DNA of 56,606 nucleotides from Candidatus Korobacteraceae bacterium (GTDB taxonomy: Bacteria > Acidobacteriota > Terriglobia > Terriglobales > Acidobacteriaceae), in contig JBEKQY010000004.1 in NCBI GenBank assembly GCA_049519235.1, positions 1 to 56,606 on the forward strand, read 5' to 3'. Positions 10,689 to 54,211 of this stretch are shown piece by piece; the stretch's first letter is position 1; each line of letters starts with the position of its first letter. The position numbers were made by a program, and so were the translations under genes. The notes below the pieces were generated by a model. It saw only the letters and a program-made list of their open reading frames with translations, did not search any database and had not been told where the DNA came from.

Positions 10689-11287
10689 TCGACTCCGAAG
10701 ACTTGGCGGAACAGCAGCATGTCGGCAGGCGAGAACGGGGCGCACCGCTCAGGGTGCCACATAATCGCCGTTATCGGCTGGGTGGGATGGCGAATCGCTT
10801 TGACAACGCCGTCGGCGGCCACCGCCCAGACTTCGAGCGGCGGCTGCGAGTCAAAGGCGGCAAAGCAATGATAGCTGTTGACCTCTCTTGGCTCGCCGTC
10901 GATGCGGATGAGCTGGCATTTGGTCACATGGCCTTCGACGCGGCGTAACGGAATACCGAAGCGCTGCTGAATCATTTGCATGCCGCGACAAACGCCCAGC
11001 ACCGGCAGCCCGCGCCGCTCCGCCAAATCGAGCAGGGCATTTTCCACTGCGTCGCGTTCCGGGGCATCGCCGCCTAAAACAGCCAGATCGTTACCGCCGG
11101 TCAACACCAACCCGACAATGCCAGCCCGCTCGCACAAGGCAACAGCAGCCTCGACGACGTTGGGGAGCAATACGGGGAGCAGCCCGCAGGCCGCCAGGAA
11201 CTTGGTCCATGCTTGATCCAGGCAATCACGGCGCTCGCCATAGTCCGGATCGACCGATACCCGCTGGGTGATGGCGACCGCCTTCAT
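10685..11287 (-). CDS. class I glutamine amidotransferase / peptidase C26-fold hydrolase; candidate gamma-glutamyl-CDP-amidate hydrolase (Cj1417-like)
   Basis: Nucleophile elbow 'LPVLGVCRGMQMI' and 'IMWHPER' (His/Glu). The start at ATG 11287 (MKAVAITQR) forms an ATGA overlap with the upstream stop. Confidence 0.8.
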   Translation of the reverse strand: MKAVAITQRVSVDPDYGERRDCLDQAWTKFLAACGLLPVLLPNVVEAAVALCERAGIVGLVLTGGNDLAVLGGDAPERDAVENALLDLAERRGLPVLGVCRGMQMIQQRFGIPLRRVEGHVTKCQLIRIDGEPREVNSYHCFAAFDSQPPLEVWAVAADGVVKAIRHPTQPITAIMWHPERCAPFSPADMLLFRQVFGVE

Positions 11288-22479: not shown

Positions 22480-22486
22480 GAGCTCG

Positions 22487-24300: not shown

Positions 24301-24404
24301 GTGAAGCTGCGCCGCCAGTAATCTGGCGAGCTAATGAGATCTCATCTTGGCTTCATAACTGCGGCACGCGCCCTGCCGTAATCTTGCTTGCTGTAGAGAC
24401 GCCT

Positions 24405-25523: not shown

Positions 25524-26208
25524 TCCACATCTCGCCGTCAAAGACATTTCTGTGAGTTATGGCTCAGGCCGCGCGAGATTGCGAGCCCTAAATGCAGTAT
25601 CGCTTAGCCTTACGCCCGGCTGCCTGACTCTGGTCACGGGACCGTCTGGTAGCGGGAAGACGACGCTGCTGTCCGTGCTGGGCTGCCTGTTGTCGCCGGA
25701 GAGCGGGGATGTCTGGGTCATGGAGCGGCTGACCACCAACCTCAACGAAGCAGAGAAGACGGCCCTGCGGAGGCAATCAATTGGCTTCATCTTCCAGGCA
25801 TTCCGACTATTCAGGTCGCTCTCGGCACTGGAGAATGTGAGCCTGGCTCTGGAAGTCGCGGGCCGCCGTGGTGCTCCGTCCGAAGCGCTCGCAGCTAGCA
25901 TGCTCGACGAGATTGGACTGTCTGACAAGGCCCACCTGAAGCCAGTGGAATTGAGCGGGGGCGAAAAGCAGCGGGTAGCAATTGCTCGTGCCCTGGTGGG
26001 TGGTCCCTCAATCCTGCTTGCCGATGAGCCTACGGCTGCACTTGACAGTGCATCAGGCTCGCAGGTCATGGAAATACTGAAGCGGATAGCGAAAAAAGAA
26101 AACCGTACCGTCGTGGTCGTAAGTCATGATATGAGATGGCTACCACTGAGCGACAGAAGCATATCCTTACAGGATGGCCGGGTGACCGGCAATAGCGAGT
26201 TACAGTGA
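25516..26208 (+). CDS. ABC exporter ATP-binding protein (MacB/LolD/DevA-like)
   Basis: 'GPSGSGKTT', 'LSGGEKQRVAIARAL', 'ILLADEPT'. GTG 25516 overlaps the permease stop. Confidence 0.9.
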   Translation: MSNPHLAVKDISVSYGSGRARLRALNAVSLSLTPGCLTLVTGPSGSGKTTLLSVLGCLLSPESGDVWVMERLTTNLNEAEKTALRRQSIGFIFQAFRLFRSLSALENVSLALEVAGRRGAPSEALAASMLDEIGLSDKAHLKPVELSGGEKQRVAIARALVGGPSILLADEPTAALDSASGSQVMEILKRIAKKENRTVVVVSHDMRWLPLSDRSISLQDGRVTGNSELQ

Positions 26209-27302
26209 GCACTTCCTTCCACAAGGCTTGGACGTTAAAGCATGGCGGCTTGGCTGGGCTGGTCATTGGTTTGCTTTTGGCTGCGGCCATTGTCATCGGT
26301 GTAGGGCGCTCAACCCCGCATAACGCGAGCGTGGCAGCCGCCGACGGGGGCCGGCCGACCGACACCTCATCGCAGACCCAAGTAGTGCTGGCCGCACCCG
26401 GACGAGTGGAAGGACTCACCGAAGTCGTTGAGATCGGCGCCGGAGTCGGCGGTGTTCTCGCGGAGGTCGATGTCCAAGAGGGGCAACACGTCAAGGCTGG
26501 CGCGATTCTCGCGCGCATTGATCGAGCTGACCTTGAGGCCGATCTCGAAGCCGCCAATGACGCACTGGAATCCGCGCGGCAGTCTCGCGCCCTGCTCAAG
26601 TTGGGAAGTCCACTAACGGAACGCGGCGAAGCGACCGCTAAACTGAGTTCCGCACAAGCTTCAGCACAGGCGGCTGCGCAACAATTTACCCGCGCTCAAA
26701 CGCTCTTTGCCAAGGGCCTTATCTCATCCTCCGATATTGTGAAGCAATACAAGACGGGGCTGGCTCAGGCGCAAGCCGATCTGGAAGCCGCGCAAAAGCA
26801 TTATCGCCGGGTAGCGGACGGGCCGCAGCCTGAGGAGCTGGCGCGGGCTGACGCTGAGGTGCGCAAAGCGGAAGCAGTTGCGCAAGCAGCCAAGGCACAA
26901 GTGGAGCAATGCGTTGTAAAAGCCAGGACCTCCGGCACTGTCCTACGGGTCTATATGAGGCCGGGCGAGGTTTACAGTCCCCAGTTTCCGCGGCCAATTG
27001 TCAGCATGGCGGACACGTCTCGTCTCCGGGTCAGGGTAGAAGTGGATGAGCGCGACATCGGACGCATCTTTGAGGGCCAGCGTGCGGTGGTTTTGGTTGA
27101 CGCTTATCCGGGGCAACGATTTACGGGCACGGTCTCGCACATTGAGCCTTTGATGGGACGCAAGAAGGTGCGTACCGGCGATCCTGCGGAAAAGAGTGAC
27201 CGTGACGTGCTGGAAGCAGTTGTAGACTTGGATCCCAGCAAGTCCCTTCTGATAGTTGGACTGCGAGTCAACGTCCAGTTTCTGACTAAGGAGGCAAGCT
27301 AA
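26205..27302 (+). CDS. HlyD/DevB-family periplasmic adaptor (membrane fusion protein)
   Basis: N-terminal anchor, lipoyl-like 'VKAGAILARID', a long Ala/Gln-rich coiled-coil hairpin and a C-terminal beta-barrel region. The start overlaps the ATPase stop. Confidence 0.8.
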   Translation: MSTSFHKAWTLKHGGLAGLVIGLLLAAAIVIGVGRSTPHNASVAAADGGRPTDTSSQTQVVLAAPGRVEGLTEVVEIGAGVGGVLAEVDVQEGQHVKAGAILARIDRADLEADLEAANDALESARQSRALLKLGSPLTERGEATAKLSSAQASAQAAAQQFTRAQTLFAKGLISSSDIVKQYKTGLAQAQADLEAAQKHYRRVADGPQPEELARADAEVRKAEAVAQAAKAQVEQCVVKARTSGTVLRVYMRPGEVYSPQFPRPIVSMADTSRLRVRVEVDERDIGRIFEGQRAVVLVDAYPGQRFTGTVSHIEPLMGRKKVRTGDPAEKSDRDVLEAVVDLDPSKSLLIVGLRVNVQFLTKEAS

Positions 27303-29696: not shown

Positions 29697-30689
29697 GTGT
29701 TGGAGCCCCAGACCGCTTACTCAGCGCCGGTCAGTTCTCCCCACCAACACGTCCTAAAGCCTGGCAGATCCAACTCCGGCTGGCTCACCCGCTGGATGCG
29801 CCTGGACGAAAGCGAAGCCTCATTTTCCGTTCGCTCCTTCCAGGCTAGCTCCAAAGATGCGCAACGGCGCCTGGAGCTGATCGGTCGCACCTTCATCACG
29901 GGTTACAATTCGGCGATCGAGCGCAAGGGCCTCGATGAAATCAGCGCCGTCCTGGACGAAGTACAGCCGGAGTTGCGTGGTTTTGCGTTCGAAGGCGCAT
30001 CGATGGCGTCTTCACTTCTGGATCTTTTGTCGCTTCGGTCTTCGCGATTCATGGGCCTATTGCGCGGCCCGGGACAACAATACATCCATTTGTGCTGGGT
30101 CGGTACTGGATGGGCCTGTGCGCGGCTGAAGCTGTTGCACGGCCGCTTCCGCCGTAAGTTTTTTCCGCATGATCCCTTGTTGAGCACGCTGGCTTACGAT
30201 GGCTGGGGTTTCCACGAAGGATACTTTTCCTCCCAGCGCTACCTGCGTAGGCAAGCGCCCGCCCCTGGAATTCTGAAGGGAGATACCAGACGGATTTTCG
30301 ACCAGGGCTTTGGACGCAGCTTGTGGTTTGTAGGTGGAGCAAGAGTGACAGCCATTAAGAGCATGATCGCGCCGTATCCCGTCGAACGGCAGGCAGACAT
30401 GTGGAGCGGCGTTGGCCTGGCGTGCGCTTATGCGGGATGCGCCGGGGGCAGCGATCTGGAGATGCTGCTTACTATCGACAATTCGTTCCTGCCTCACCTT
30501 AGGCAGGGTGTCGCATTTGCCGCCAAGGCGCGGGTGCATTCCGGGAATGTGATCGAAGATACATATCTCGCCGCGCAGCTCCTTTGCGGAACTTCACCCG
30601 AGAAGTTAGCCGAAGTGACGGACGCCGCACAACGGCGAACCAACGATTACATGAGCTGGAGAGCCGAACTCCAGCGCTATTTCACGTGA
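29697..30689 (+). CDS. UnbL / E3-type enediyne-cassette protein (DUF1702-like)
   Basis: Assigned mainly by size (~330 aa) and its position as first gene of the E3-E4-E5-E-E10 order. GTG start follows GGGATGAGAGGGA. I recall E3/UnbL being the DUF1702 family, but cannot verify this here. Confidence 0.55.
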   Translation: MLEPQTAYSAPVSSPHQHVLKPGRSNSGWLTRWMRLDESEASFSVRSFQASSKDAQRRLELIGRTFITGYNSAIERKGLDEISAVLDEVQPELRGFAFEGASMASSLLDLLSLRSSRFMGLLRGPGQQYIHLCWVGTGWACARLKLLHGRFRRKFFPHDPLLSTLAYDGWGFHEGYFSSQRYLRRQAPAPGILKGDTRRIFDQGFGRSLWFVGGARVTAIKSMIAPYPVERQADMWSGVGLACAYAGCAGGSDLEMLLTIDNSFLPHLRQGVAFAAKARVHSGNVIEDTYLAAQLLCGTSPEKLAEVTDAAQRRTNDYMSWRAELQRYFT

Positions 30690-30700
30690 GAAGGGCTAAG

Positions 30701-32692
30701 ATGGAGCCTTCCAGGCATCCGCAGGCCAAGAAGATTGCCGCCACGGTCATCGCCCTCGGGGCGTTGGGCGTGGCTTGGATGTATAGACCTGCTCCGGTCA
30801 ATGCACATACCATCCCCGGCCTCAAGGACAGATTTTCTTTTCGCGCCTACGACCTTCCAACTCTGCCCGGCCCACAGCAAACCACCCGGCAAGTAAACGG
30901 CTCGCTCGCCCATATCGACGGATGGATTTCGTCGGTCGGAGCGGCTGTGGCGATCAACGATATCGATGGCGACGGACTGGCCAATGACATTTGCTATGTC
31001 GATACGCGAACCGACCAGGTCATTGTTGCCCCGGCGCCCGGCACCCCGGCACGTTACGCTCCATTCGCTCTCGATCCTTCTCCTGTCAAAGTCGATAAGC
31101 GCACCACGGCTCCCATGGGCTGTTTGCCAGGAGACTTCGATGAAGATGGCAGGATCGATCTGCTGGTTTACTACTGGGGACGCACGCCCATTGTCTTTCT
31201 GAACCACTACGACCGTAGTAAACAACATGAGCTGAATGCTCAGTCATTCCAGGCGGTCGATCTGGTACCGGGTGGGGAGAGATGGTTTACGAATGCGGCA
31301 GTACTCGCCGACCTGGATGGCGATGGCCATGTTGACATCGTCATTGGGAATTATTTTCCTGACGGCGCCGATATCCTGGATCCGGACAACCCTCAGCCGC
31401 AACACATGCAGTCGTCTATGTCACACGCTTATAACGGCGGCGACAAACATTTTCTGTTGTGGCAGCCACCCGCTCCCGGCGCGCCAATCCGATTTCGCGA
31501 TGTAGTGCCGGAATTCCTGGTTGGAAATTACCGGCCAGTAAGCGCCACTTTGCAGGACGAGATTTTGCATGGCTGGACGCTTGCGCTTGGAGCGGCTGAC
31601 CTGAATGGCGATCTTTTGCCTGAACTCTATATCGCCAACGATTTCGGTCCCGACCGCCTGCTGGAGAATCTCTCATCGCCCGGCCATTTGAAGTTCCGGC
31701 TGCTGGAGGGAGCGAGAACGTTTTTTACCCCGAAGTCAAAGGTGCTTGGCCACGATTCTTTTAAGGGCATGGGGGTGGATTTCGCGAATCTCAAGGGTGA
31801 TGGCCGTCTGGACATATTAGTCGGCAATATCACCGACGAATTCGCGTTAGAAGAGAGCAATTTCGCCTTTGTCCCCACCGATAACAGTTTGACCGACCAG
31901 CGCGGCATTGCCCATTACCAAGATGAGAGTGAAGAACTTGGGATATCGCGCACCGGCTGGACCTGGGACGTCAAGGCGGCAGACTTCGACAACGAGGGCG
32001 CGCCCCAGATTGTGCTGGCGACAGGATTTCTGAACTCAGCTACCGCCCGAGAAGGTATCGACCGTTGGCCCGAGCTGCATGAGATCGCGATGGGCAACGA
32101 CGTTCTTCTTCAGTACCCATGGGCTTGGCATAGGTTTAAGGACAGCGACGCCCTTAGCTCGCACAACCATACGCCGTTTTTTGTAATGAATCGCGACGGA
32201 ACCTACAGCGACATTTCGCAGGAAATCGGTCTGGAACACATCTATCCGGGAAGAGGCATTGCGGTCGCGGACGTGAGGGGAGACGGCCTTCTCGACTTCG
32301 CAATCGCCAATCAGTGGGGCACGTCCGTGTTCTACCAGAATACGAGCGTCTCGCATGGAGCCGCCCTCACGCTAAGGCTCTTATTGCCAACCCACACGGG
32401 AGTAACGAATTTCCGGATCGAGAACGGATCCAGCGACAGTATTAGCGGGTCTCCCGCCATCGGAGCCACCGCAAGCCTACGTCTTCCCAATGGCCGGGTC
32501 CTGGTTGATCAGGTGAATGGAGGAAATGGGCATTCTGGAAAGAATAGCTTCGAGATTCACTTTGGACTGGGTCGTCAGGACCCAAGCCAGCGGTACCAAG
32601 TAATCCTGAATTGGCGCGATCGCGGCGGCAAAACCAATACGCACAGCGTGTCTCTGGTTGCCGGACGATACAGCGTTCTTCTGGGGCAATAG
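30701..32692 (+). CDS. UnbV / E4-type protein: FG-GAP (VCBS) repeats plus C-terminal ASPIC/UnbV domain
   Basis: Repeats 'DIDGDGLANDICYVD', 'DFDEDGRIDLLVYYWG', 'DLDGDGHVDIVIGNYF', 'ADLNGDLLPELYIANDFGPDRLLEN', 'NLKGDGRLDILVGN', 'VRGDGLLDFAIANQWG'. C-terminal 'NGGNGHSGKNSFEIHFGLG' is the ASPIC/UnbV hallmark. ATG 30701 follows GAGAAGGG. Confidence 0.8.
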   Translation: MEPSRHPQAKKIAATVIALGALGVAWMYRPAPVNAHTIPGLKDRFSFRAYDLPTLPGPQQTTRQVNGSLAHIDGWISSVGAAVAINDIDGDGLANDICYVDTRTDQVIVAPAPGTPARYAPFALDPSPVKVDKRTTAPMGCLPGDFDEDGRIDLLVYYWGRTPIVFLNHYDRSKQHELNAQSFQAVDLVPGGERWFTNAAVLADLDGDGHVDIVIGNYFPDGADILDPDNPQPQHMQSSMSHAYNGGDKHFLLWQPPAPGAPIRFRDVVPEFLVGNYRPVSATLQDEILHGWTLALGAADLNGDLLPELYIANDFGPDRLLENLSSPGHLKFRLLEGARTFFTPKSKVLGHDSFKGMGVDFANLKGDGRLDILVGNITDEFALEESNFAFVPTDNSLTDQRGIAHYQDESEELGISRTGWTWDVKAADFDNEGAPQIVLATGFLNSATAREGIDRWPELHEIAMGNDVLLQYPWAWHRFKDSDALSSHNHTPFFVMNRDGTYSDISQEIGLEHIYPGRGIAVADVRGDGLLDFAIANQWGTSVFYQNTSVSHGAALTLRLLLPTHTGVTNFRIENGSSDSISGSPAIGATASLRLPNGRVLVDQVNGGNGHSGKNSFEIHFGLGRQDPSQRYQVILNWRDRGGKTNTHSVSLVAGRYSVLLGQ

Positions 32693-32695
32693 CAC

Positions 32696-33616
32696 ATGGA
32701 GGGGGCGCAGAAGATGGATACCCGATTGGCCGCGCTGAGGCGGTTCGCCATCGCGATAACCGTACTCAATATCCTGGGCCATAGCTTCCTCGGCTTTGAA
32801 CAGTCCCCAGCGCAGCCGGTTTTTTCTGTGCTGCTGGCGTGGTCCATCGAACTTGTCCTGGAAACTGTGCAGTCGTGGGGGGATGGCCGAAAACCTCGAT
32901 TCTTAGGAGGCGGGATCGTCGGCTTCGTGGACTTTCTTTTGCCCGCCCAAATCACTGGATTGGCTGTCGCCATGCTGTTGTACGCCAACGACAGGTTGCT
33001 CCCAATTCTGTTTGCGACGACCATCGCTATGTGTTCTAAGGCGATCTTTACCATCAAGCAGGGCCCTGCCATACGTCACTTCTTTAATCCATCGAATTTT
33101 GGCATCACTCTTACTCTTCTGTTGTTTCCCTCGGTAGGCATTACACCGCCGTATATGTTCACCGAAGGGTTGGGAGTCGCCGGCAGCCTGATTCTTCCTT
33201 TGTTCATTACTGTCAGTGGTACCTACATCAACACCAAGCTAACTGGCCGACTGCCGCTGCTGCTGGCTTGGATCAGCGGCTTCACGCTGCAGGCGTTAGT
33301 GCGGCACTATCTTTTCGGCACCAGCTTGCTACCCATGCTGGGGGTCATGACCGGCGTAACTTTCGTTCTCTATACGTTCTATATGATCACCGACCCGGCA
33401 ACGACACCGGCCGCGGTTCGAGGGCAAGTGGCTTTCGGCCTTTCCGTCGGGCTGCTCTACGGAGTTCTTGTCATGTCTCACATCGTGTTCGGAATGTTCT
33501 TCGCGCTTACGATTGTGTGCTTCAGCCGGGGCATGGCGCTGTTGCTGTTGCCGCTGTTGGAGAAAGCCAAGAGCCCGGCGCGGGAAGAGCAGCGAGTGTT
33601 GGCAGCGGTAAGGTGA
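32696..33616 (+). CDS. UnbU / E5-type integral membrane protein
   Basis: ~8 TM helices, 306 aa, located directly between the UnbV-type gene and the PKS as in enediyne minimal cassettes. Confidence 0.6.
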   Translation: MEGAQKMDTRLAALRRFAIAITVLNILGHSFLGFEQSPAQPVFSVLLAWSIELVLETVQSWGDGRKPRFLGGGIVGFVDFLLPAQITGLAVAMLLYANDRLLPILFATTIAMCSKAIFTIKQGPAIRHFFNPSNFGITLTLLLFPSVGITPPYMFTEGLGVAGSLILPLFITVSGTYINTKLTGRLPLLLAWISGFTLQALVRHYLFGTSLLPMLGVMTGVTFVLYTFYMITDPATTPAAVRGQVAFGLSVGLLYGVLVMSHIVFGMFFALTIVCFSRGMALLLLPLLEKAKSPAREEQRVLAAVR

Positions 33617-33619
33617 GCC

Positions 33620-36600
33620 ATGGCCGATGCAATCGCGATCATCGGGCTAGGATGCGAATACCCAGACGCTTCTACGCCCGTAGAGTTGTGGCACAGCGTT
33701 CTGGCACAACGGCGGAGTTTTCGCCGCATTCCCCGGGAAAGACTTGATCTGGAAGCGTACTGGTCGCCGGACCGAACGGACTGTGATCGCACATACTGCA
33801 CCAAGGCGGCGCTGCTCAAGAACTTTTCCTTTGACCGCGCAGCTTTTGGCATATCGGGCGCTACCTTTCGCGCCACTGATCTTGCGCATTGGCTGGCGCT
33901 GTCCACTGCCGCCAAGGCACTGAACGAGGCATTTGCCGACAGCGAGATCGTGCATTGGCGGGAAACGACCGGCGTATTCGTCGGAAATTCGCTGACCGGG
34001 GAGTTTTCCCGCGCCAGTTGTCTTCGCGTCCGCTGGCCTTTTGTCGAGAGTGTTCTGGAAGGACAACTGCGAGCACAAGGCTGGTCCGACAGCGACGCTG
34101 CGGACTTTTTGCGGCGATGCGAAGAACAGTACAAGGCGCACTTTGAGCCGTTTTCCGAGGACACTCTTCCCGGTGGACTTTCCAACACCATCGCTGGCCG
34201 GATCTGCAATTTCTTCGATCTGAAGGGCGGCGGATATGTGCTGGACGGCGCCTGCGCGTCGTCGCTGCTGGCCGTCATCAACGGTTGTTCCGCTCTGGAG
34301 TCGCGCGACCTGAATGTTGCCATCTGTGGCGGAGTTGATCTCAGCCTGGATCCGTTCGAGCTGGTCGGCTTTGCCCGCAACGGCGCGCTCGCCGCCGATG
34401 AAATGAGGGTCTTCGACAGCAACCCGACCGGGTTCCTGCCTGGAGAAGGCTGCGGATTTGTGGTGATGATGCGCCTCCAGGATGCGCTGGCCGCAGGCTG
34501 CAATGTTCGCGGAGTCATTCGCGGCTGGGGCATTTCGTCTGACGGGCAAGGGGGCATGACCCGGCCCGAGCCGCAAGGACAGTTGCTGGCGCTGACGCGC
34601 GCCTATCGGCGGGCGGGCCTCGATTCATCCCAGGTTCCGTATTTCGAGGCCCATGGTACGGGGACGGCGGCCGGGGATGACGCCGAACTCACCGCGCTCG
34701 CCGAAGCCGTGCGATCTCCATCGGGGAGCCCCGCCGTCGTCAGCTCCATCAAGGCCATCATCGGACACACCAAGGCGGCAGCGGGAATCGCCGGGTTGAT
34801 GAAAGCCATGATGGCTTTGGAATTCGGGACACTGCCTCCTACGACTGGTTGCATTACTCCACACCGAATTCTGACCGAGAAGCCGGAACTGCTGCGGGCG
34901 CAATCGGAGTCTTCGTCGTGGCCGCAGGACCGCGAATTGCTTGCCGGAGTTAGCGCCATGGGCTTTGGCGGAATCAACACCCATGTGGTGTTGCAGAGCG
35001 CCGGCGCCGTTCCACGGCAAATTCCGGCCTCCATGCGAGCTGCATGCCATTCGTCTCAAGACGCGGAGCTGTTCCTGTTTTCTGCGGACACCTCGGCGGC
35101 ACTGCAAGCGGCAGTCGATTCCGTAGTCACGAAGGCGGCATCGCTATCGGCCGCGGAATTGACGGACTTGAGCGCTTACCTGATTCGCCGCACAGGGCGC
35201 GGCCAGTGGAAAGCCGCGTTGGTCGCCCGCACTGCCGAAGAATTGAGCCGGGAAGCAGCAGGGCTAGCGAGCTGGATCGGCGCCGGAATAACGAATCGAT
35301 ATCAATACAACGACGGCATCTTCTTGTCGAGCGAAAACAGGCGCCTGCGGCTCTGCTATCTGTTTCCTGGGCAGGGAGTATCCTATTGCGCGGACGATTG
35401 GCCGCTCTACAGCAGACTGGTGGGCGATGGAGCGCTGACCGAATTCGCGCCTCTGTCCGCGGACGCTGGAGAAACTGAGAAAGCTCAGGTCGGGATCTCG
35501 CTGCAGTGCCTGAAGCAGTTGCGGGTGCTCTCCTCGTTGGCAATTCAGGCCGACGCTGCCATTGGCCATAGCGTAGGCGAACTCGTGGCGTTGTGTTGGT
35601 CCGGCACCATTGCTGAATCGCAATTGCTGGAGATGGTGCAGGCTCGAGGCCGCGTCATGCATCACTGCTCGCCTTCGGGCGGAGCGATGATCGCGGTGAT
35701 GGCGAGCGCTGCCAGCGTCAACGGATTTCTTCCCGCCGAGACCGTCATCGCGGCGCTCAACGGAAGCCACATCGTCGTATCCGGGCCTGTAGAGCTGATT
35801 GCCAAGGCAGAGGCTATCTGCCTAGAGAAAAACATCCATACCGTACGGCTCCCCGTGAAGTATGCATTTCATTCGCCGGCCTTCGCGCCGGCCGCAAAGT
35901 TGTTTGCGGCTGAACTTGAACATCATGCCTTTCAAAAGCCCACGAGAACAGTTTTTTCGACCGTGACCGGAAACGTATTTCGGGAAGATGCCGACCTCGT
36001 CCGTCACCTATCAGAACAGATCATCAACCCCGTCCGGTTCGAATCTGCGGTTCAGCAGGCTTCGGCAGTGGTCGACCTGTTCCTGGAAGTGGGCTCGCCG
36101 GGCGTGCTGCGTGATATGGTGCAAGCTGTCTCAGAGGTCCCGGTAATTAGCTGGACTCCTCGCAGCGACACAGGCTTGCTCACCACGGCTGCTGTCCTGC
36201 ACGTGTCTGGATCTCCAGTCGATCTTCGGCGCCTGGTGACAACGCGCTTTGTCCGCGACTTCTCTCCTGACGCGCGATTCGATTTTCTCCGGAATCCCTG
36301 CGAATCCCTGGAGGATTCCCAGCGCGAGCGGAAGGCCTGCCGCGTACCTCAAGCTGTTCGTCCTGAAGAACCGGTTGTTGCTGCATCCATAATCCCGGCG
36401 GGGATGCAGACTGGCAATGTTCGGCAAGCGGCCTTAGACAAATTGCTGGAGATTGTCTCAAGGAAGACAGAGTTACCGAAGGACCGGCTACAGCCCTCGA
36501 TGAACCTGTTGACCGATTTGCATTTGAGCTCCATTACGGTGGCGCAGATCGCGATCGAAACCGCAAGGGCATTGGGTAGGAAGCCGCTTCTGGCGCCTAC

Positions 36601-39364
36601 GAGTGCTGCCGGAAAGACTCTCGAACAGCTCGCGGCCACCATTGCGGAATCTGCCCAGGCAGGCGAAGCGGAGGGACCGCTTCCGGCGATACGCGGCATA
36701 GATAGCTGGGTGGGAATGGCAGTGGTGGAGGACCAGCCGCTGCCGCTTACTGCTCCCGCCATCGCAGCGCAGGTCCGCGGGCACTGGGATGTGCTTGGCG
36801 CGTTATCGCCCAACGCAAAGCGCATTGCGCAAGGTGTCGTAGGAGAGCTTTCAGGAGACGGCGTTCTGCTGCTCTACGATTCCACAACATCACTCGCGCT
36901 GCTGCTGAGTGCCGTTCAGCAGGCTCATCTCAAGCACTGTGCCTTGCTGGTCGTCTGCGATTCTTTAGCGCCGTCATTGTCGGGATTCGCTCGCAGTGTA
37001 TTCCTTGAAGGTGGCGCAAGCCGAGCACTTGTGGTGCGGCTGGATTTCGCCGATCCGGGTGCGCCGCAATGCATCCTTCAGGAATTCGGCAATCCCGCTC
37101 GCTTCGTAGAGAGCAGCTATATGTCCGGGCAGCGATACGAGCCCGTTGTACGGTTGCTGGAACCGGGCACAACCGAGGCGTCACCTTTCTTCACAGCGGA
37201 AGATTGCCTTCTAGTTCTGGGAGGCGGCAAGGGCATTGCAGCGGAATGTGCGTTTGAACTTGCCCGCAACTACGGCTTATCACTCGCTCTGGTGGGACGC
37301 TCTGACCCTTCCGCCGATAGTGAGCTAAGGAACAATCTCGACCGGCTGTCTCATGCCGGAATTCGCTTCCGCTATGAGCGCGGGGACGTCACCTCCGAGG
37401 AATTTTGCACTACCATCCCCGCTCTGGAAGCCGAGATGGGCCCCATCACCGCGATCCTGCACGCTGCCGGACTGAACCAGCCGAAGTCGCTGGCAGCCTT
37501 GACGGCGGCCGACCTGGAAGCGGCGCTTGCGCCGAAGCTTGCCCCGCTGGCGTCACTGCAAGGCGTGCTGGGCTTCGATCGTCTCAAGGCAGTCATCGCG
37601 TTCGGTTCGATCATTGCCCGTATGGGCCTCGCCGGTGAGGCCCATTATGCTCTTGCCAACGAACGGCTGCGTGAACAAATGGAAGAGCTTTCCACGCGCT
37701 ACACCAATTGCCGGTTTGGCTGCCTGGAATGGTCGGTGTGGTCTGGGCTGGGCATGGGGGAGCGGCTGGCCAGAGTCGATGAACTGGCACGGCAAGGAGT
37801 TGAGCCGTTAACGCCAGAGATGGGCACCAGAGCGCTTATCGATTTCCTGCAATCAGAATCTCCGGGCACGTCGGTCATTGTCACCTCGCGGTTCCCGTCC
37901 ATGCCGACTCTGAATGTCAGCAGGCCGGCCATCAAACCGTATCGCTTTCTGGAACGCACGCTTGTGGACTATCCGCATATCGAACTGGTGGCGGAGGCCG
38001 ACTTGGCGATACAAAAGGATTTGTACCTTAACGACCACAAGCTGGACGGAACGGTGCTTTTCCCCGCCGCTCTGGGTTTAGAAGCAATGGCCCAGGCGGC
38101 TACCGCGCTATTTAGAAAGAGCGGTGCCTTAACTTTATCCGACATTCGATTTGAGTCGCCCATTACGGTTGATGCTGCCAACGGAACGACGATCAGAATA
38201 GTGGCCCTCAGGCGGGATTTCGCCTCGGCTGACATCGTCATTCGCTCTAGCCAAACCGCCTTCCAGGTTGACCACTTCCGGGCGACCTGCTCGCTACAGG
38301 AAGGACCCAGGCCGCGCCCGCACAATCATCCGGTTCCTGCAACGCCGCTAATCGAGGGCGACGATCTATATGGCTTCATGCTTTTTCAACGTGGGCGCTT
38401 TCAAGCGGTGAAGGGATACCTCCATCTGGATTCGCGGTCCTGCACTGCGTTGCTCTCGCCCTCTGAACAGCAGTGGTTCAGTCAATTTCTGCCGCAGTCC
38501 TTTGTGCTTTTGAATCCAGCGTTTGCGGATGCGGCCATGCACGCCATACAAGCATGCATACCCCACCGAAAGCTCGCTCCCACAGCGATAAAGCAAATTA
38601 TCGCGCACTCTTCTTCCTGCAAATTGGAGACCGCGGTCTGTAAAGCGGTCGAGCGCGCTTCCAACCAGGACGAGTTTGTCTACGACCTCGACATCCAGGA
38701 TCAAGACGGAAATCCGCTGCAGTCATGGAAGGGACTCACCCTTCGCGCGGTGGCGGAAAACGATGCGACTTTGCTGAGTACCCCGGCCTTCATCGTGAAC
38801 ATGCTGGAGCGGCGGTGGCGCGAGATTACCGGGGACGACGGGGCAACTGTCTCGCTGCGGGAACAGGGCTCGGATCGCGTGCAGGTCTTAGAACCGCGCC
38901 CGCGGCGTGCCGATGGCAAACCGGCGCAATCCGGGCGGACCGCGGCACGCGCTTGGTCCGGCCGTACCCTGTTGGAACTCCGGTCTTCGCTTGACAGCAG
39001 TTGCGATCTGGAACGAGTCGTCACGCGCGACGAAGCCACCTGGCGCGACCTGCTCGGCGGGCCAGGATTTGAATCGGCGCTTTTCTTTTCTCAAGAGCAC
39101 GGTGAAGACCTGGACTTGTCGGCTACGCGCGCATGGTGTCTCGCCGAGTGCCTGAAGAAGATCGGAAAACCGGCATCCGCTCCGGTCACGTTGGCTGCCT
39201 GTCTGCCCGGCCGCTGGATGGTCATGCGGTGCGGCGGCTGCACGCTTTGCACGGTTCCAATTGTGGCTTCGGGAAATCGAATGGTCGCGGCATTTGCTGC
39301 CCGCTCACGGGCTACCCGCCACAACCTTCCGGCCGAGGTGGCACGTGCCTTCGTTTCTCTATGA
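33620..39364 (+). CDS. iterative type I polyketide synthase of the enediyne (PKSE) architecture: KS-AT-ACP-KR-DH-PPTase, 1914 aa
   Basis: KS: 'LDGACASSLLAV' (Cys ~aa 212), 'EAHGTGTAAGD', 'GHTKAAAG'. AT: 'AIGHSVGELVAL'. ACP-like: 'LTDLHLSSITVAQIAIE' (~nt 36510-36560). KR Rossmann: 'LVLGGGKGIAAECAFELA'. DH hotdog: 'HKLDGTVLFPAALGLE'. C-terminal PPTase-like: 'RAWCLAECLKKIGK'. The length is typical of PKSE. Confidence 0.85.
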   Translation: MADAIAIIGLGCEYPDASTPVELWHSVLAQRRSFRRIPRERLDLEAYWSPDRTDCDRTYCTKAALLKNFSFDRAAFGISGATFRATDLAHWLALSTAAKALNEAFADSEIVHWRETTGVFVGNSLTGEFSRASCLRVRWPFVESVLEGQLRAQGWSDSDAADFLRRCEEQYKAHFEPFSEDTLPGGLSNTIAGRICNFFDLKGGGYVLDGACASSLLAVINGCSALESRDLNVAICGGVDLSLDPFELVGFARNGALAADEMRVFDSNPTGFLPGEGCGFVVMMRLQDALAAGCNVRGVIRGWGISSDGQGGMTRPEPQGQLLALTRAYRRAGLDSSQVPYFEAHGTGTAAGDDAELTALAEAVRSPSGSPAVVSSIKAIIGHTKAAAGIAGLMKAMMALEFGTLPPTTGCITPHRILTEKPELLRAQSESSSWPQDRELLAGVSAMGFGGINTHVVLQSAGAVPRQIPASMRAACHSSQDAELFLFSADTSAALQAAVDSVVTKAASLSAAELTDLSAYLIRRTGRGQWKAALVARTAEELSREAAGLASWIGAGITNRYQYNDGIFLSSENRRLRLCYLFPGQGVSYCADDWPLYSRLVGDGALTEFAPLSADAGETEKAQVGISLQCLKQLRVLSSLAIQADAAIGHSVGELVALCWSGTIAESQLLEMVQARGRVMHHCSPSGGAMIAVMASAASVNGFLPAETVIAALNGSHIVVSGPVELIAKAEAICLEKNIHTVRLPVKYAFHSPAFAPAAKLFAAELEHHAFQKPTRTVFSTVTGNVFREDADLVRHLSEQIINPVRFESAVQQASAVVDLFLEVGSPGVLRDMVQAVSEVPVISWTPRSDTGLLTTAAVLHVSGSPVDLRRLVTTRFVRDFSPDARFDFLRNPCESLEDSQRERKACRVPQAVRPEEPVVAASIIPAGMQTGNVRQAALDKLLEIVSRKTELPKDRLQPSMNLLTDLHLSSITVAQIAIETARALGRKPLLAPTSAAGKTLEQLAATIAESAQAGEAEGPLPAIRGIDSWVGMAVVEDQPLPLTAPAIAAQVRGHWDVLGALSPNAKRIAQGVVGELSGDGVLLLYDSTTSLALLLSAVQQAHLKHCALLVVCDSLAPSLSGFARSVFLEGGASRALVVRLDFADPGAPQCILQEFGNPARFVESSYMSGQRYEPVVRLLEPGTTEASPFFTAEDCLLVLGGGKGIAAECAFELARNYGLSLALVGRSDPSADSELRNNLDRLSHAGIRFRYERGDVTSEEFCTTIPALEAEMGPITAILHAAGLNQPKSLAALTAADLEAALAPKLAPLASLQGVLGFDRLKAVIAFGSIIARMGLAGEAHYALANERLREQMEELSTRYTNCRFGCLEWSVWSGLGMGERLARVDELARQGVEPLTPEMGTRALIDFLQSESPGTSVIVTSRFPSMPTLNVSRPAIKPYRFLERTLVDYPHIELVAEADLAIQKDLYLNDHKLDGTVLFPAALGLEAMAQAATALFRKSGALTLSDIRFESPITVDAANGTTIRIVALRRDFASADIVIRSSQTAFQVDHFRATCSLQEGPRPRPHNHPVPATPLIEGDDLYGFMLFQRGRFQAVKGYLHLDSRSCTALLSPSEQQWFSQFLPQSFVLLNPAFADAAMHAIQACIPHRKLAPTAIKQIIAHSSSCKLETAVCKAVERASNQDEFVYDLDIQDQDGNPLQSWKGLTLRAVAENDATLLSTPAFIVNMLERRWREITGDDGATVSLREQGSDRVQVLEPRPRRADGKPAQSGRTAARAWSGRTLLELRSSLDSSCDLERVVTRDEATWRDLLGGPGFESALFFSQEHGEDLDLSATRAWCLAECLKKIGKPASAPVTLAACLPGRWMVMRCGGCTLCTVPIVASGNRMVAAFAARSRATRHNLPAEVARAFVSL

Positions 39365-39800
39365 ACACACCGTTTCGTTTGAGGAAACCAATGTCCTGGG
39401 AAATGTATATTTCACTAATTTCCTGAGGTGGCAAGGTATTTGCCGTGAGCTGTTTCTGAAGGAGCACGCTCCACAGCTACTATCGCAGCTCCCGGACACG
39501 AAGATTGCGACCTTGCACTGTTCGTGCTCCTACTATTGGGAGCTCTATGCCTTTGATCGAGTCACGGTTGAGATGTATCTTGGCAGTGCAGGCGAATCCG
39601 GCAAACCAGTTGAATCAGATGTACTCTGGATTTGCTTCAAGTACTGGAAGGACGCGGTTCCCGATAGATTGCTAGTAGGGGAAGGGGAACAGAAACTTGC
39701 TTTTATGTACTCGACGAATGGAAGCAAGTGGGACAGGGGTCCTATACCGGACTCTTTGCAAAACGCATTGGTGCCCTTTGGATTTACCAAGCTGCGCTGA
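39345..39800 (+). CDS. hotdog-fold (4HBT-type) thioesterase, TEBC / E10-like
   Basis: 'YEHTVSFEETNVLGNVYFTNFLRWQG' is the 4-hydroxybenzoyl-CoA-thioesterase-type N-terminus. The start is uncertain: GTG 39345 is proposed, overlapping the PKS end by 20 nt, whereas the ORF track opens at 39261. Confidence 0.7.
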   Translation: MPSFLYEHTVSFEETNVLGNVYFTNFLRWQGICRELFLKEHAPQLLSQLPDTKIATLHCSCSYYWELYAFDRVTVEMYLGSAGESGKPVESDVLWICFKYWKDAVPDRLLVGEGEQKLAFMYSTNGSKWDRGPIPDSLQNALVPFGFTKLR

Positions 39801-39815
39801 ACTCGGCGTTCGACA

Positions 39816-40439
39816 ATGAGCCGCCACGATCATATTGAAGAAAGTAGCGGGGACGACAACCATTCGGTTCCGCACCCTAAGCCTAAAATTCGCATCATTG
39901 AAGACCAGGATGCGACCGGCGAGACGGCGGCAGCCTACGACTTCTGGCGAACTGCTTCGGGCCGGCAACAGGTGCCGGGCATCATCAAGTGTTTTGGTGC
40001 ACGGCCTGACTTCCTGCGCCAGGTTGTGGAATTCTCCAACACCATCCATTTCTCCGACGGCCACCTTTGTCGCCGCCACAAGGAAATGATCGCCTGTTAT
40101 GTGTCGTATCTGAATCATTGTCCCTATTGAATGGACAGCCACGGATACTTCCTGCGTGTTCAGGGAGCCAGCGAGCAATGCGTAGCGGCGATTTTGGAAG
40201 GAAAGCTGGAAGAGGCAGGCCTGACTGCGGCCGAGTATGCCCTTCTGCAATATGCAGAACTGATAACCCGCGACGCTGCTCGCTCGTCCGCTGCTGATGT
40301 CGATCGCTTGCGCGGTTGTGGTTGGACAGAAGAACAGATCTCGGAGGCGGTCTATGTGATCGCGATGTTCGCTTTCTTCAATCGCATCGCCGATGCGTTT
40401 GGCATCCCATCCCAGAATTACCTGTTGTCGGGGCGATAA
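39816..40439 (+). CDS. AhpD/carboxymuconolactone-decarboxylase-family peroxidase-related protein, read through in-frame TGA 40128-40130 (candidate selenocysteine; C-P-Y-U-M-D-S-H)
   Basis: ORFs 39816..40130 and 40131..40439 are in the same frame, separated only by TGA. Joined, they give '..YVSYLNHCPY[TGA]MDSHGYFL..', i.e. the family CxxCxxxH motif with TGA at the second Cys. The combined length of ~207 aa is typical. Confidence 0.55.
40143..40169 (+). promoter_or_regulatory. candidate bacterial SECIS-like stem-loop downstream of the in-frame TGA
   Basis: Upper stem 40148-40154 (CTTCCTG) pairs with 40161-40167 (CAGGGAG): 7 bp including one G.U. 6-nt loop CGTGTT, with GU ~26 nt after the TGA. 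Possible 2-bp lower stem GG 40143-44 / CC 40168-69 across a 3-nt bulge. Folded by hand only. Confidence 0.3.
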
Positions 40440-40642
40440 ACCGTACGTCGACAAACCAAGTATTGTGTTCATCCTGCGGTACGTGATCCTCGGGGGCAGG
40501 ATGTGCTTGCGCCTGGCAAGTCTCAAAGCCGGGTCCGCAGAGTATTTTCCCAGAACCTGTTTCTGGTCTCGTTGGCCGATCAATTGCCTGTTGTTTTCGT
40601 GAACTGGGCCACTACGAATGGACTTGGGGTTCGTCGGCGCCC

Positions 40643-41062
40643 TCACCTACGGCTTAGAGGCGAATGAGGAATGATGATTCTCCGTCGTCCAAACAGCACT
40701 GCGTCGAGCGAGAACGCGCCGGGGCCAAGGAGCGCGATCGCCACATCGATGATGATTACGTTGAGGATCAATGGATTGCCGCGGAGTGAATGGATTGGAG
40801 ACGTCATAACCCAACGACGTATAATAGCACCAGTAAGAACAGCCCCAAGTATGGCAGCAGTCCTGGTCAAGATGCCCACGATCAGTGACGCACCAACTAC
40901 CAGCGCGAGCAAGCCAAGAACGAAACTGCTCAGGCTCGGATCGTTCGCGTCAGAGATAGACGGAACTGTGTAGACCACAAGGGCCGCACCGACCGCGATT
41001 CGCAGCAGCAGCAACCCCGCGCCGGGAGCTCTACCCGGAAATCCAGAATGTAGCCTCGCCAC
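40643..41062 (-). CDS. DoxX-like small membrane protein
   Basis: 139 aa, four hydrophobic helices, and a 'LLLLRIAVGAALVVY' N-terminal helix typical of DoxX-type proteins. Assignment by pattern only. Confidence 0.5.
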   Translation of the reverse strand: MARLHSGFPGRAPGAGLLLLRIAVGAALVVYTVPSISDANDPSLSSFVLGLLALVVGASLIVGILTRTAAILGAVLTGAIIRRWVMTSPIHSLRGNPLILNVIIIDVAIALLGPGAFSLDAVLFGRRRIIIPHSPLSRR

Positions 41063-41186
41063 AGGGCCTCCTCGGAATTGTTGGCCTTAGCCGCCACAAG
41101 AAGGCTACCGTCCCGGGAAGCCAGATAAATCCCTAAGCTTAGGATTTGTTTTGTAACACTTTCTCGGTATCAGCTTGCGAAGAGAG

Positions 41187-41816
41187 TCATAAGTGAATCA
41201 TGCCACGTTTGATTGCAATCGCAACAGCTTGTGTGCGGTCGTTAGCTCCGAGTTTCTCCATGATGTGTTTGATGTGTACCTTCACCGTCTCTTCGGAGAT
41301 GAACAATCGGTCCGCGATGTCGCGGTTGCGATTGCCTCCGGCGACGTGTTGAAGTACCTCAATTTCGCGTGCGGTGAGGTCTTCGTCGGCATAGTGTTCG
41401 GCCAGGTGCGCCGCAATGCCAGGGGGAATCCGCTTCCTGCCGGCATGGACAATGCGAACAGCATCGACCACATCCTTGGGCGGCATGCTCTTCAGGATGT
41501 AGCCTTGTGCCCCTGCCCCCAGCGCCCGCTGGATTTCCACGTCACCTTCCGAGGTGGTCAGCATAATGACGCGCGCATTGGGGAACTCGCTCCGAATTGC
41601 CAGCATCGCCTCGATACCGTTTTTGTCCGGAAGCCTGACATCCATCAGCGTTATGTCGGGTCGAAGTTCGCGAAACCGCTCCAGGGCCTCGGCGCCAGTC
41701 GACGCCTCACCCACAATGGACATGTCGGGCTGACTATTAATCAGGGTGCAGATTCCCTCCCGCAAAAGGGGATGGTCATCGACCGTCAGCACCCGAATGG
41801 GGGCCTGCTTGCTCAC
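41187..41816 (-). CDS. response regulator, NarL/LuxR family (REC + HTH)
   Basis: 'RVLTVDDHPLLREG', 'DITLMDVRLPDKNG', and the LuxR HTH 'LTAREIEVLQHVAGGNRNRDIADRLFISEETVKVHIKHIMEKLG'. Confidence 0.9.
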   Translation of the reverse strand: MSKQAPIRVLTVDDHPLLREGICTLINSQPDMSIVGEASTGAEALERFRELRPDITLMDVRLPDKNGIEAMLAIRSEFPNARVIMLTTSEGDVEIQRALGAGAQGYILKSMPPKDVVDAVRIVHAGRKRIPPGIAAHLAEHYADEDLTAREIEVLQHVAGGNRNRDIADRLFISEETVKVHIKHIMEKLGANDRTQAVAIAIKRGMIHL

Positions 41817-52406: not shown

Positions 52407-53558
52407 CTATTGAACGGCATCGCTTGCCTCGGGGAAGGCGGCTGCAATTCCTTCCGCCACGTTGCGGGTCTGATACTCGACAAACTTCCCGAACCCGGCA
52501 GCAACATGCGTCTCTGTAACGTGGACGTAGTAGCGAGCAGCAACGGCGGGTGAGCTATGGCCCATTAAGCGGGCGAGCGAGAATCTGTCCATCCCCGACT
52601 GTGCGGCCCGCGTGCCGAACGTGTGACGCCAGCAGTAGAACTCAAACGGCTCCAGCTTGGCATCCTTCACGGCCTTTTCGTGCGGATGCTGAAACGAGAT
52701 AACGTGTCCCGCATTGCTAGTGCCGGGAAACACGAACTCGGGTTGGTTCGACTTCGATTCCGCCACTCTCTTGCGCCGCTGTAGCACCTCAGCAGCACGC
52801 GGAGTCAGCGGAAGGCTTCGCTGTGCGCTCACCGTCTTGCCCTGGCGAACGTGAATGACGCCATGCGGACACTCGGGGCGTGCGATCAAGTCCACATCGG
52901 CCCACAGCAGCGGGAACAATTCGCTGTTGGGCCGCATCCCGGTATCTACCGCGAGGATGGTTGCGTCCCGCAGATTCTCGGAAGCCTTCGCCAAGTACAG
53001 CGCCTCTTCCTTGAAACTGAGCACGCGGTCACGGCCCTTCGGCTGTGGCAGTTCATGGACGGCGGGCGCGAGAGTAAGTTTGCCCCATTCAGCCGCGACT
53101 TTCAGAATGCGCCGCAACGTGCGCAGATCGCCGTTGACAGTCACAACGGAATTTTCCGCTACCTCTTGCCTATGGCGGGCGTATTTGCTCGCCAGATCGC
53201 CTGTAATGACGTTTAGCGGGGCATCTGCGATAGCAGCGAATGCCAGAAGCCTCTCCAGGCAGCCATCGTAAAACGTGTGCGTTCCCGGCTTCGTGTGCGT
53301 CTTGGCGTACTGCAAGAATTCTCTTGCGAACGCGCGGAAGATCGGCGGGGAAACGGCACTAAGTTTCGGCCACGGATCGCGCGGGTGAATCTCCCCGAGT
53401 CGCAACGCCCGCCGGTGTTCGTCCTCAGCGTCCTTCGCGTCTTGCTTGTTTTGTGTCCGGGCAGACTTCACGATGCGGAAGTTCTCCGCTGTGCCATCGG
53501 TGTTCCTGACACTCCAGCGGAAGTTGTACCAGTAGGTTTTTCCTCGTTTGTACAGCAT
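52407..53558 (-). CDS. tyrosine-type site-specific recombinase / phage integrase
   Basis: N-terminal SAM-like core-binding domain. 'CWRHTFGTRAAQSG' (H-x-x-R) and 'LARLMGHSSPAVAARYYVH' (His plus catalytic Tyr region). Confidence 0.9.
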   Translation of the reverse strand: MLYKRGKTYWYNFRWSVRNTDGTAENFRIVKSARTQNKQDAKDAEDEHRRALRLGEIHPRDPWPKLSAVSPPIFRAFAREFLQYAKTHTKPGTHTFYDGCLERLLAFAAIADAPLNVITGDLASKYARHRQEVAENSVVTVNGDLRTLRRILKVAAEWGKLTLAPAVHELPQPKGRDRVLSFKEEALYLAKASENLRDATILAVDTGMRPNSELFPLLWADVDLIARPECPHGVIHVRQGKTVSAQRSLPLTPRAAEVLQRRKRVAESKSNQPEFVFPGTSNAGHVISFQHPHEKAVKDAKLEPFEFYCWRHTFGTRAAQSGMDRFSLARLMGHSSPAVAARYYVHVTETHVAAGFGKFVEYQTRNVAEGIAAAFPEASDAVQ

Positions 53559-53567
53559 AAGCGCGCC

Positions 53568-53801
53568 TCACTTTGCAGCGGTCTTGCGTTTCGATTTTTT
53601 CTTGCGGCCCTTCGGCCTTCCGCCCAACTTGCCGTTAGCTCGTGATGCTGTGGCTTTCGCTTTCGATGTGACGGAGCCACGGCACGCGGGGCAGTAGCAG
53701 ATTAGCTCGATGTGGTGGATTGGAACAGCTATACTCCATGCAGCGAACACCGCGCGGTAGCCGCTGAGGAATAGCCGATGCCTAAGAAGCCCGACATGCA
53801 C
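53568..53801 (-). CDS. possible small basic protein upstream of the integrase; start unresolved
   Basis: C-terminal 'CYCPACRGSVTSKAKATASRANGKLGGRPKGRKKKSKRK', a CxxC followed by a Lys/Arg tail. The full ORF would overlap the divergent 53778 gene, so the true start is probably internal (e.g. a GTG). Confidence 0.25.
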   Translation of the reverse strand: MHVGLLRHRLFLSGYRAVFAAWSIAVPIHHIELICYCPACRGSVTSKAKATASRANGKLGGRPKGRKKKSKRKTAAK

Positions 53802-54176
53802 GCAGCCGCGCTGAAATCATGGCGCACCCGGCGCAGAATGAGCGCCTTCGCCAAGGCCCGCGCTGCGGAAGCGGCCAGCAAAGAAGCGCTCCGCGTCTAC
53901 TGCCAAGAGCATGGTTGGAAGCTGGCGTTCTTCGAGGGCGCTACAGGTTCACCGCGCACGGGCATCATCGATGCGATTGCGTTCCGCCTTGGCCGCGAGA
54001 ATGCCGATCTGCTGGACGTGCGCCTGATTCAGTTAAAGGGCGGGAAAGCGGGCGTGAGCGGAGCCGAGATTGCACGGCTCAAGAAAGCCTCTGCCGGGGC
54101 AACGGTAAGCTGGCAAATCGCTGCCTTCGATGGCGAATCTCTTCATCTACTGCCCGACCATTTGCCCGTCAAGTAA
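53778..54176 (+). CDS. small PD-(D/E)xK (VRR-NUC-like) nuclease-fold protein, putative
   Basis: 'GIIDAIAF...DVRLIQLKGGKAGVSGAEI' fits a D...(Q/E)xK nuclease-core spacing, followed by the K-G-x-x-S segment seen in VRR-NUC proteins. By eye only. Lies 35 nt upstream of the methyltransferase on the same strand. Confidence 0.35.
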   Translation: MPKKPDMHAAALKSWRTRRRMSAFAKARAAEAASKEALRVYCQEHGWKLAFFEGATGSPRTGIIDAIAFRLGRENADLLDVRLIQLKGGKAGVSGAEIARLKKASAGATVSWQIAAFDGESLHLLPDHLPVK

Positions 54177-54211
54177 GATACTCCCGAAAACGAAAAACCC
54201 GGTGCTAACGA

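Follow-up and report, generated by a model that had tools for sequence, protein, structure and literature searches.

An in-frame UGA and a conserved downstream hairpin mark a predicted AhpD-like selenoprotein gene of soil Terriglobia

The subject of this analysis is a gene in a 56,606-nucleotide (nt) stretch of DNA, hereafter the window, from contig JBEKQY010000004.1 of Candidatus Korobacteraceae bacterium (assembly GCA_049519235.1). Two open reading frames (ORFs) on the plus strand, 39816-40130 (104 aa) and 40131-40439 (102 aa), lie here in the same frame and the sole break between them is a TGA at 40128-40130. An earlier note on this DNA had pointed to this arrangement and had placed the TGA at the second Cys of the CxxCxxxH motif of AhpD-type proteins; it proposed that the codon specifies selenocysteine (Sec) in a family already known to contain it, followed by a hairpin compatible with a bacterial selenocysteine insertion sequence (SECIS). 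We find the same frame and the same translation, which across the TGA reads ...YLNHCPY*MDSHGYFLRVQGA.... Read as one AhpD-like (TIGR01926) gene at 39816-40439, the sequence is complete: it has 207 codons including the predicted Sec codon, which specifies residue 105 at the second position of a C-x-x-U motif, and closes with a TAA stop at 40437-40439.

For profile matching, Cys was substituted for the internal stop. The joined product then matches the NCBIfam profile TIGR01926 ("peroxidase-related enzyme") with 101.1 bits against a cut-off of 81.8, residues 26-200 covering positions 4-176 of the 178 in the profile, and this full-length match is obtained only with both halves joined. The Pfam family CMD (PF02627) is matched as well. 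The nearest solved structures, PDB 2OYO and 6K40, are aligned by phmmer over residues 18-205, across both halves, and the TGA is aligned with the second Cys of their N-R-C-x-Y-C-x-x-S-H motif, in agreement with the position proposed earlier; in the window this motif reads C102-P-Y-[TGA]-M-D-S-H109. The proton relay of M. tuberculosis AhpD consists of Glu118, Cys130, His132, Cys133 and His137 (PMC3141380), and the spacing of E90, C102, Y104, the TGA at 105 and H109 is identical to it. Cys102 (TGT, 40119-40121), the first residue of C-P-Y-U and the equivalent of Cys130, is invariant in both of our homologue alignments, as is Glu90 (GAA, 40083-40085), which lies 12 residues before it and would correspond to Glu118 (PMC3141380). 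His109 (CAC, 40140-40142), four residues past the Sec codon and the equivalent of His137, is nearly invariant in the second homologue alignment and is present in all of the 154 unique Sec-form genes described below. A Tyr at the third relay position is also seen in PA0269 (PMC3141380).

To follow the TGA column across relatives we fetched loci whose proteins are 68-79% identical to the window protein, 80 of them metagenomic and 80 taken from species-representative genomes. The named records among them are all Acidobacteriota (Terriglobia, Terriglobales, Acidobacteriaceae, Candidatus Sulfotelmatobacter, Acidoferrum and Acidiferrales). The aligned codon is TGA in 166 of 166 fetched loci, including 80 species-level genomes, and the 154 unique gene sequences hold no additional stop and no frameshift. 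In either half, variation is 0.40 at third codon positions and 0.04-0.10 at the first and second. When the window gene is compared pairwise with its twelve nearest relatives, omega is about 0.04 before the TGA and about 0.11 after it. These values indicate that both halves are under purifying selection.

A lone in-frame stop in one metagenomic contig looks just like a nonsense mutation or a miscalled base in an ordinary Cys-type AhpD-like gene, and the earlier note had called for a read-level check of the TGA and had named random interruptions in close homologues as a sign of pseudogenisation. However, six further contigs from several independent samples carry the gene without a single nucleotide difference (seven contigs in total), so a sequencing or base-calling error is excluded, and no such random interruptions occur among the unique genes. 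With the TGA present in every fetched locus and a downstream half under purifying selection, we consider a pseudogene or an assembly error next to impossible. Nor does the window use a deviant code: TGA terminates at least 12 of its long ORFs, including the thioesterase gene directly upstream, and the genetic code is therefore standard. Further ORF pairs interrupted by an in-frame TGA were also looked for across the window, but chance pairs were too numerous in this sequence (58% GC) for the result to be informative.

A second possibility is that the two halves are made as separate polypeptides, the second by re-initiation at the ATG at 40131, and assemble into a functional CMD fold. In the window the codon after the TGA (+1) is indeed ATG, and gene callers annotate ORFs of 104 and 102 aa. 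Among the unique genes, however, codon +1 is CTG, CTC or CTA in 148, ATG in 2, GTG in 1 and ATT, ATC or GTA in 3, which makes three start codons and 151 non-start codons. Because Leu is encoded at +1 in 148/154, the C-terminal half has no independent initiation. The break moreover interrupts the active-site motif C-x-x-[C/U]-x-x-x-H midway, and a split gene would lose the catalytic residue that the Cys forms keep. We regard this explanation as extremely improbable.

The same column was inspected at the protein level. The best 120 protein clusters comprise approximately 88 TGA forms, of which 21 end exactly at CPY and 67 read CPYWLDSH, and approximately 25 Cys forms, which are more distant, read CPYC(L/M/A)DSH and have TGC or TGT as the codon in paralogues. 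The CPYW clusters, mostly JGI/IMG gene calls from short contigs, apparently arose because the metagenome gene caller rendered TGA as Trp. We read their Trp in this way because all of the 166 DNA loci have TGA at this position, a reading taken from the fetched loci as a set. The resulting three-way split between truncated, Trp and Cys versions is the classic Sec/Cys signature. The alignment with Cys-containing homologues that the earlier note had also proposed thus places the TGA in the expected column, with Cys in the paralogues.

A few homologue clusters have other residues in the Sec/Cys column, namely Arg (P0034 and P0098), Gly (P0076) and Leu (P0080 and P0101). The codons for Arg (CGA/AGA) and Gly (GGA) are one base off TGA, and Leu (TTA) would need a different change. 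Such clusters could stem from inactivated variants, from errors or from translation with a different code. At two fetched loci, L168 (5001-6217) and L180 (902-2154), and probably also at L169 and L179, an APC permease gene is followed by a Cys-form AhpD-like gene and then by a TGA-form gene with an intact hairpin, so that in L168 and L180 the Cys and Sec versions are kept adjacent in one genome. We had considered treating the Cys forms as a series of Sec-to-Cys conversions, and this was rejected, as several of them are tandem paralogues upstream of the Sec form. For the same reason the Cys forms are used below as a control for RNA-level constraint and not as orthologous replacements.

Downstream of the UGA lies the predicted SECIS hairpin (40148-40167, plus strand), in which a 7-bp stem formed by CUUCCUG (40148-40154) and CAGGGAG (40161-40167) closes a 6-nt loop, CGUGUU (40155-40160). 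The distance from the UGA is 17 nt to the stem and 24 nt to the loop. A hairpin at 40143-40169, beginning 18 nt after the TGA, had been drawn in the earlier note; the hairpin is real, with its limits and distance corrected to those given here. All 7 pairs form in each of the 154 unique genes, and the only three stem variants (CUG to UUG once, GGA to GGG twice) each retain a G-U pair. The loop has the consensus C-G-(U/G)-G-U-(U/C), or CGKGUY, with an invariant G at position 2 and an invariant GU at positions 4-5, and in none of the unique genes does it contain CGC, the preferred codon for Arg, or the codons GTG and GTA for Val. Bacterial SECIS elements have been described as bearing a conserved G in a small apical loop that lies not far past the UGA (PMC1088965), and the window hairpin fits this published description of loop and spacing. 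Using RNAalifold on 121 unique sequences, exactly the hairpin at 40148-40167 is predicted, at -8.6 kcal/mol.

The constraint on the hairpin is most evident at synonymous sites. Among 109 conserved degenerate codons, only six have near-zero synonymous entropy, namely the five that make up the stem and codon -1, which immediately precedes the UGA (hypergeometric p ~5e-8). The frozen stem codons are Tyr+6 TAC, Phe+7 TTC, Leu+8 CTG, Gln+11 CAG and Gly+12 GGA; the last is found in 152 of 154 genes, whereas the family-wide frequency of GGA is 0.19. Codon -1, encoding Tyr104 (40125-40127), is TAT in 154/154 Sec forms, whereas the family-wide usage of TAC for Tyr is 0.66. In seven Cys-form genes a perfect stem is present in only 3, the stem codons vary (TTT, CTC, CTA, ATC and GGC) and codon -1 is TAC in 5 of the 7, indicating that the stem constraint is relaxed in the Cys forms. 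Cys homologues have been reported to have remnant SECIS-like structures (PMC1794560), and we suggest that the stems kept in some Cys forms could be such remnants. Comparison of the homologues argues strongly that the hairpin is under purifying selection at the nucleotide level.

Two further synonymous biases in the Sec forms run against the usual family preference, Gln+16 CAA (124:6) and Asp+15 GAT (109:19), both within window positions 40170-40180. A lower helix pairing UAUUGA (40125-40130) with UCAAUG (40175-40180) was proposed for the TAT at -1 and the CAA at +16, and its positions pair in 71-99% of genes. It was not adopted because the two-helix model is less stable (-6.4 versus -8.6 kcal/mol for the hairpin alone) and RNAalifold does not predict the lower helix. 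Neither this helix nor the 7-bp hairpin accounts for the TAT at -1 or for the CAA and GAT biases.

We also looked for the Sec-decoding machinery, the search covering the window, the flanks of the source contig and the fetched loci. Using tblastn with E. coli SelD, a SelD gene was identified in 13 related genomes, where it lies approximately 9.5-10 kb downstream of the gene with the TGA (loci L119-L122, L127, L136, L137, L142, L143, L147, L153, L154 and L161, in which it lies near the locus ends); loci L175-L177 belong to the same observation. The SelD of the related genomes is of the Cys type, with its catalytic Cys and Lys motif intact, and is very widespread in the Terriglobia lineage. It sits in an oriC-proximal block, gidB-parA-parB-bactofilin-selD...yidC-rpmH, with no selA or selB beside it, and the linkage of about 10 kb between selD and the selenoprotein gene looks like plain synteny. 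For Acidobacteria, three selenoprotein families and four selenoproteins but no selenouridine trait have been recorded (PMC1794560), and SelD is therefore likely to be used for Sec synthesis in this lineage. Of selA, selB, selC and selD, for which the earlier note had proposed a genome search, selD was thus seen in related genomes, and the other three genes were not seen in the fetched DNA.

Several observations weigh against reading this UGA as a Sec codon. With ARAGORN, tRNA-Sec was not found in the window or in 167 fetched sequences (approximately 2.08 Mb), and E. coli SelA and SelB gave no tblastn match in about 2 Mb of fetched Terriglobia DNA, in which only SelD was matched. On the source contig no sel genes were found between 17.7 and 93.6 kb, the search reaching 10 kb past each edge of the window, and SelD alone could serve other uses of selenium. 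Folding of the single sequence does not single out the hairpin: its z-score of -0.3 in the window is not significant, the minimum free energy structure computed with ViennaRNA favours a different local hairpin, and 13% of synonymous recodings of the same peptide also yield a 7/7 stem. Single-sequence folding was tried as a test on 40128-40190, the region for which the earlier note had suggested it, and on 40110-40230, and was set aside in favour of the comparative data as the energies were like those of shuffled sequences; taken alone the region is indistinguishable from shuffles, and it is the homologue comparison that supports a conserved hairpin. Double-sided compensatory changes in the stem number zero among the 154 genes, in which the three G-U variants are one-sided, and hence the case for the hairpin rests on synonymous-site freezing and not on covariation. 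A simple hairpin moreover does not account for the frozen TAT at -1 or for the CAA bias at +16. Finally, an Rfam scan of 39000-41200 (E <=10) yielded only H19_2 and sR7, both of them chance hits, and did not match any SECIS family.

Some of these points would suit a suppression of the UGA that is independent of a SECIS, in which a near-cognate or opal-suppressor tRNA, for example an allo-tRNA, inserts Trp, Cys, Ser or another residue and the hairpin only slows termination. Acidobacteria carry allo-tRNAs that have been proposed as missense or nonsense suppressors (PMC5389517), the absence of selA, selB and selC from the fetched DNA is in keeping with such a mechanism, and the frozen codon 5' of the UGA could be a stop-codon context effect on read-through. 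However, the recoded site is the redox-active Cys column of a family already known with Sec at that very position, the hairpin has the spacing and the small G-containing loop of a bacterial SECIS, and SelD is found in related genomes bearing the gene. A general suppressor would in addition read the many ordinary TGA stops in the window. We therefore consider suppression of this kind very unlikely.

To judge from the sequences, 39816-40439 is very probably a single gene encoding an AhpD-like (TIGR01926, CMD-fold) selenoprotein in which the UGA at 40128-40130 is read as Sec. The three elements on which the earlier note had built this proposal are each borne out, the Sec codon at the second Cys by the TGA in 166/166 loci, the SECIS-compatible hairpin by its selection at the RNA level, and the known family by the literature. 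One frame is conserved across the TGA, the TGA is conserved where paralogues have Cys, and SelD is encoded in related genomes; what we infer is the insertion of Sec, the binding of the hairpin by SelB, the type of substrate and the catalytic role of residue 105. The hairpin at 40148-40167, acting as a bacterial SECIS, would deliver SelB and its Sec-tRNA(Sec) to a ribosome that has paused on the UGA, and translation would proceed into the second half of the protein in place of termination. Sec105 would replace the second Cys of C-x-x-C-x-x-x-H, with Glu90, Cys102, Tyr104 and His109 filling the other positions of the proton relay.

In M. tuberculosis AhpD nucleophilic attack is by the second Cys (Cys133), after which the first Cys resolves the mixed intermediate. 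By analogy Sec105 may be the nucleophile of the window protein, its selenolate attacking an oxidised partner such as a peroxiredoxin-type sulfenate, a disulfide or a hydroperoxide. Cys102 would then resolve the intermediate to an intramolecular selenenyl-sulfide, to be recycled by a cellular reductant. A mutant of DR1765, the nearest characterised relative, is reported to be sensitive to H2O2 (PMC8945050).

How the gene compares to known systems can be stated in some detail. The AhpD-like selenoprotein family, known since 2005, corresponds to COG2128/TIGR01926. It is listed with its CxxU motif in a 2026 review (PMC13188914) and was first found in the Sargasso Sea metagenome (PMC1088965). The window gene shows every sequence-level feature by which this family is recognised, sharing with it the profile, the CxxU motif, the pairs of Sec and Cys homologues and the small G-containing hairpin. 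The known family comes from marine bacteria, Clostridia and Deltaproteobacteria, whereas the clade of the window gene comes from soil Terriglobia, its Sec form is universal within the fetched set and its SECIS is nearly invariant in sequence. On these sequence grounds the window gene is a new member, or represents a new soil-acidobacterial clade, of a known selenoprotein family.

Likeness to other AhpD-related proteins is more limited. M. tuberculosis AhpD (TIGR00777) has the CMD fold and the C-x-x-C-x-x-x-H spacing in common with the window protein, with equivalents of E90, C102, U105 and H109, but the window protein has Tyr for His132 (as does PA0269), Sec for Cys133 and no ahpC nearby. A canonical AhpD with an AhpC partner was rejected as the identity of the window protein at 20.7 bits against the TIGR00777 cut-off of 191.95. 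Deinococcus DR1765 (6K40, E 4.7e-19) and the Dgeo homologue (2OYO, E 3.6e-21) are aligned over nearly the full length, including N-R-C-x-Y-C-x-x-S-H, with modest similarity in the phmmer alignment; both are Cys proteins, whereas the window protein has Sec at the second Cys. With NF041238 (AhpD_rel_CFYUT, the 'hypothetical protein 1' of the Sargasso Sea) the window protein shares an AhpD-related domain with C-x-x-U, the C-terminal domain being partly matched. Membership of NF041238 was rejected, the score being 68.4 bits against a cut-off of 175 over profile positions 156-337 of 357 only, and the motif being CPYU(M/L) and not CFYUT. The hairpin, for its part, resembles the fdhF-type SECIS of E. 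coli in being located within the coding sequence shortly past the UGA and in having a small apical loop with a conserved G and GU. It differs in its perfect 7-bp stem with no bulged U, in lacking an Rfam match and in starting 17 nt past the UGA, compared to 11 nt for the E. coli fdhF hairpin.

The selenoprotein gene lies directly downstream of an enediyne-type polyketide synthase (PKS), or PKSE, 'warhead' cassette that spans 29697-39800 on the plus strand of this acidobacterium. The cassette consists of genes for a DUF1702 protein (29697-30689), an FG-GAP/UnbV_ASPIC protein (30584-32692), a membrane protein of 306 aa (32696-33616), a KS-AT-KR-DH PKS of 1914 aa (33620-39364) and an enediyne-type hotdog thioesterase (39345-39800), whose best solved relatives are CalE7 (E 7e-28), SgcE10 and DynE7. 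In enediyne clusters, DUF1702 proteins are established constituents alongside a type-I PKS and a thioesterase (PMC7692728, PMC8341276). Directly upstream of the cassette, at 21676-27302, are ABC/MacB/HlyD export genes. In a text search of the literature no paper on an enediyne PKSE in Acidobacteria was found, and searches with the cassette names were likewise empty.

The stop codon of the thioesterase gene (39798-39800) and the ATG of the selenoprotein gene (39816) are on the same strand and separated by 15 nt, so that the close spacing reported in the earlier note holds, its figure of a start 16 nt past the stop corresponding to an intergenic gap of 15 nt. The selenoprotein gene is the last of the co-directional block, and no terminator-like or promoter-like site was found between the two genes. 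Given the 15-nt gap, the shared strand and the lack of a terminator-like site, co-transcription of the selenoprotein gene with the enediyne-type PKS operon is plausible in this organism. The same arrangement, a CalE7/SgcE10-like thioesterase stop followed at once by the last gene of the block, might also be taken to mean that the selenoprotein is a dedicated component of the enediyne-type pathway, with a selenium-dependent function in tailoring or self-protection, and not a housekeeping redox protein. However, 122 other Sec-form loci extend 1 kb or more upstream and not one of them has a PKS or this thioesterase next to the gene, and a second, diverged genome with this adjacency was not found. 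The recurrent neighbour is instead an APC amino-acid permease, located immediately upstream in 57 of 132 loci, and the Cys-form genes likewise have an APC permease upstream. A dedicated role in the pathway is therefore unlikely. As the adjacency is unrepeated and the permease is what recurs, a functional link to the polyketide is unsupported, and the PKS adjacency is most likely lineage-specific, an accident of gene order. Of the earlier proposal that the gene is co-transcribed with the polyketide locus and may be part of it, the co-transcription thus stands as plausible, whereas membership of the locus does not find support. It also seems decidedly unlikely that the selenoprotein was recruited as the last gene of the enediyne-type operon, where it would tailor a reactive polyene or enediyne product or protect the producer; were this true, it would be the first selenoprotein tied to polyketide biosynthesis.

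Opposite the selenoprotein gene, an ORF of 324 aa on the minus strand (39672-40646) covers it entirely. We do not regard it as a gene: variation tracks the plus-strand frame, following its third codon positions, and the antisense ORF thus most likely arises incidentally from how the sense gene's codons are structured. Antisense ORFs of this kind recur in 118 related loci.

Elsewhere in the window, a phage-type integrase (52407-53558) and an N6/N4 DNA methylase (54212-55717) are encoded, and just beyond the window (L182, 13600-21506) there are a RecA-like gene, a Y-family polymerase (IMS) and a DnaE-type polymerase. The region from 52407 to 55717 and beyond looks like the border of a mobile element next to an imuA-imuB-dnaE2-like mutagenesis cassette. 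A protein of 974 aa encoded on the minus strand (11284-14208) has an unusual architecture, an APS-kinase domain fused to PPDK_N and PEP-utilising mobile domains, and its neighbours are a MobA-like nucleotidyltransferase, a C26 peptidase/GATase and a methyltransferase.

For selenoproteins in general these results leave existing knowledge unchanged, and they provide no evidence for selenium chemistry in polyketide biosynthesis. What they point to is a widespread redox enzyme of soil Terriglobia that has been systematically mis-annotated, since gene callers either annotate the selenoprotein gene as a pair of hypothetical ORFs, which is the case for the source contig, or, on short contigs, apparently write Trp at the TGA. 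All of the 160 closest loci, drawn from no fewer than 80 species-level genomes of a phylum that ranks among the most abundant in soil, have the TGA form, which suggests that part of the thiol-redox defence of soil Terriglobia depends on the supply of selenium. The near-invariant 20-nt hairpin, together with the constraints on flanking codons, would constitute a clean lineage-specific SECIS signature that may be used for annotating other selenoproteins of the Acidobacteriota and for testing recognition by SelB.

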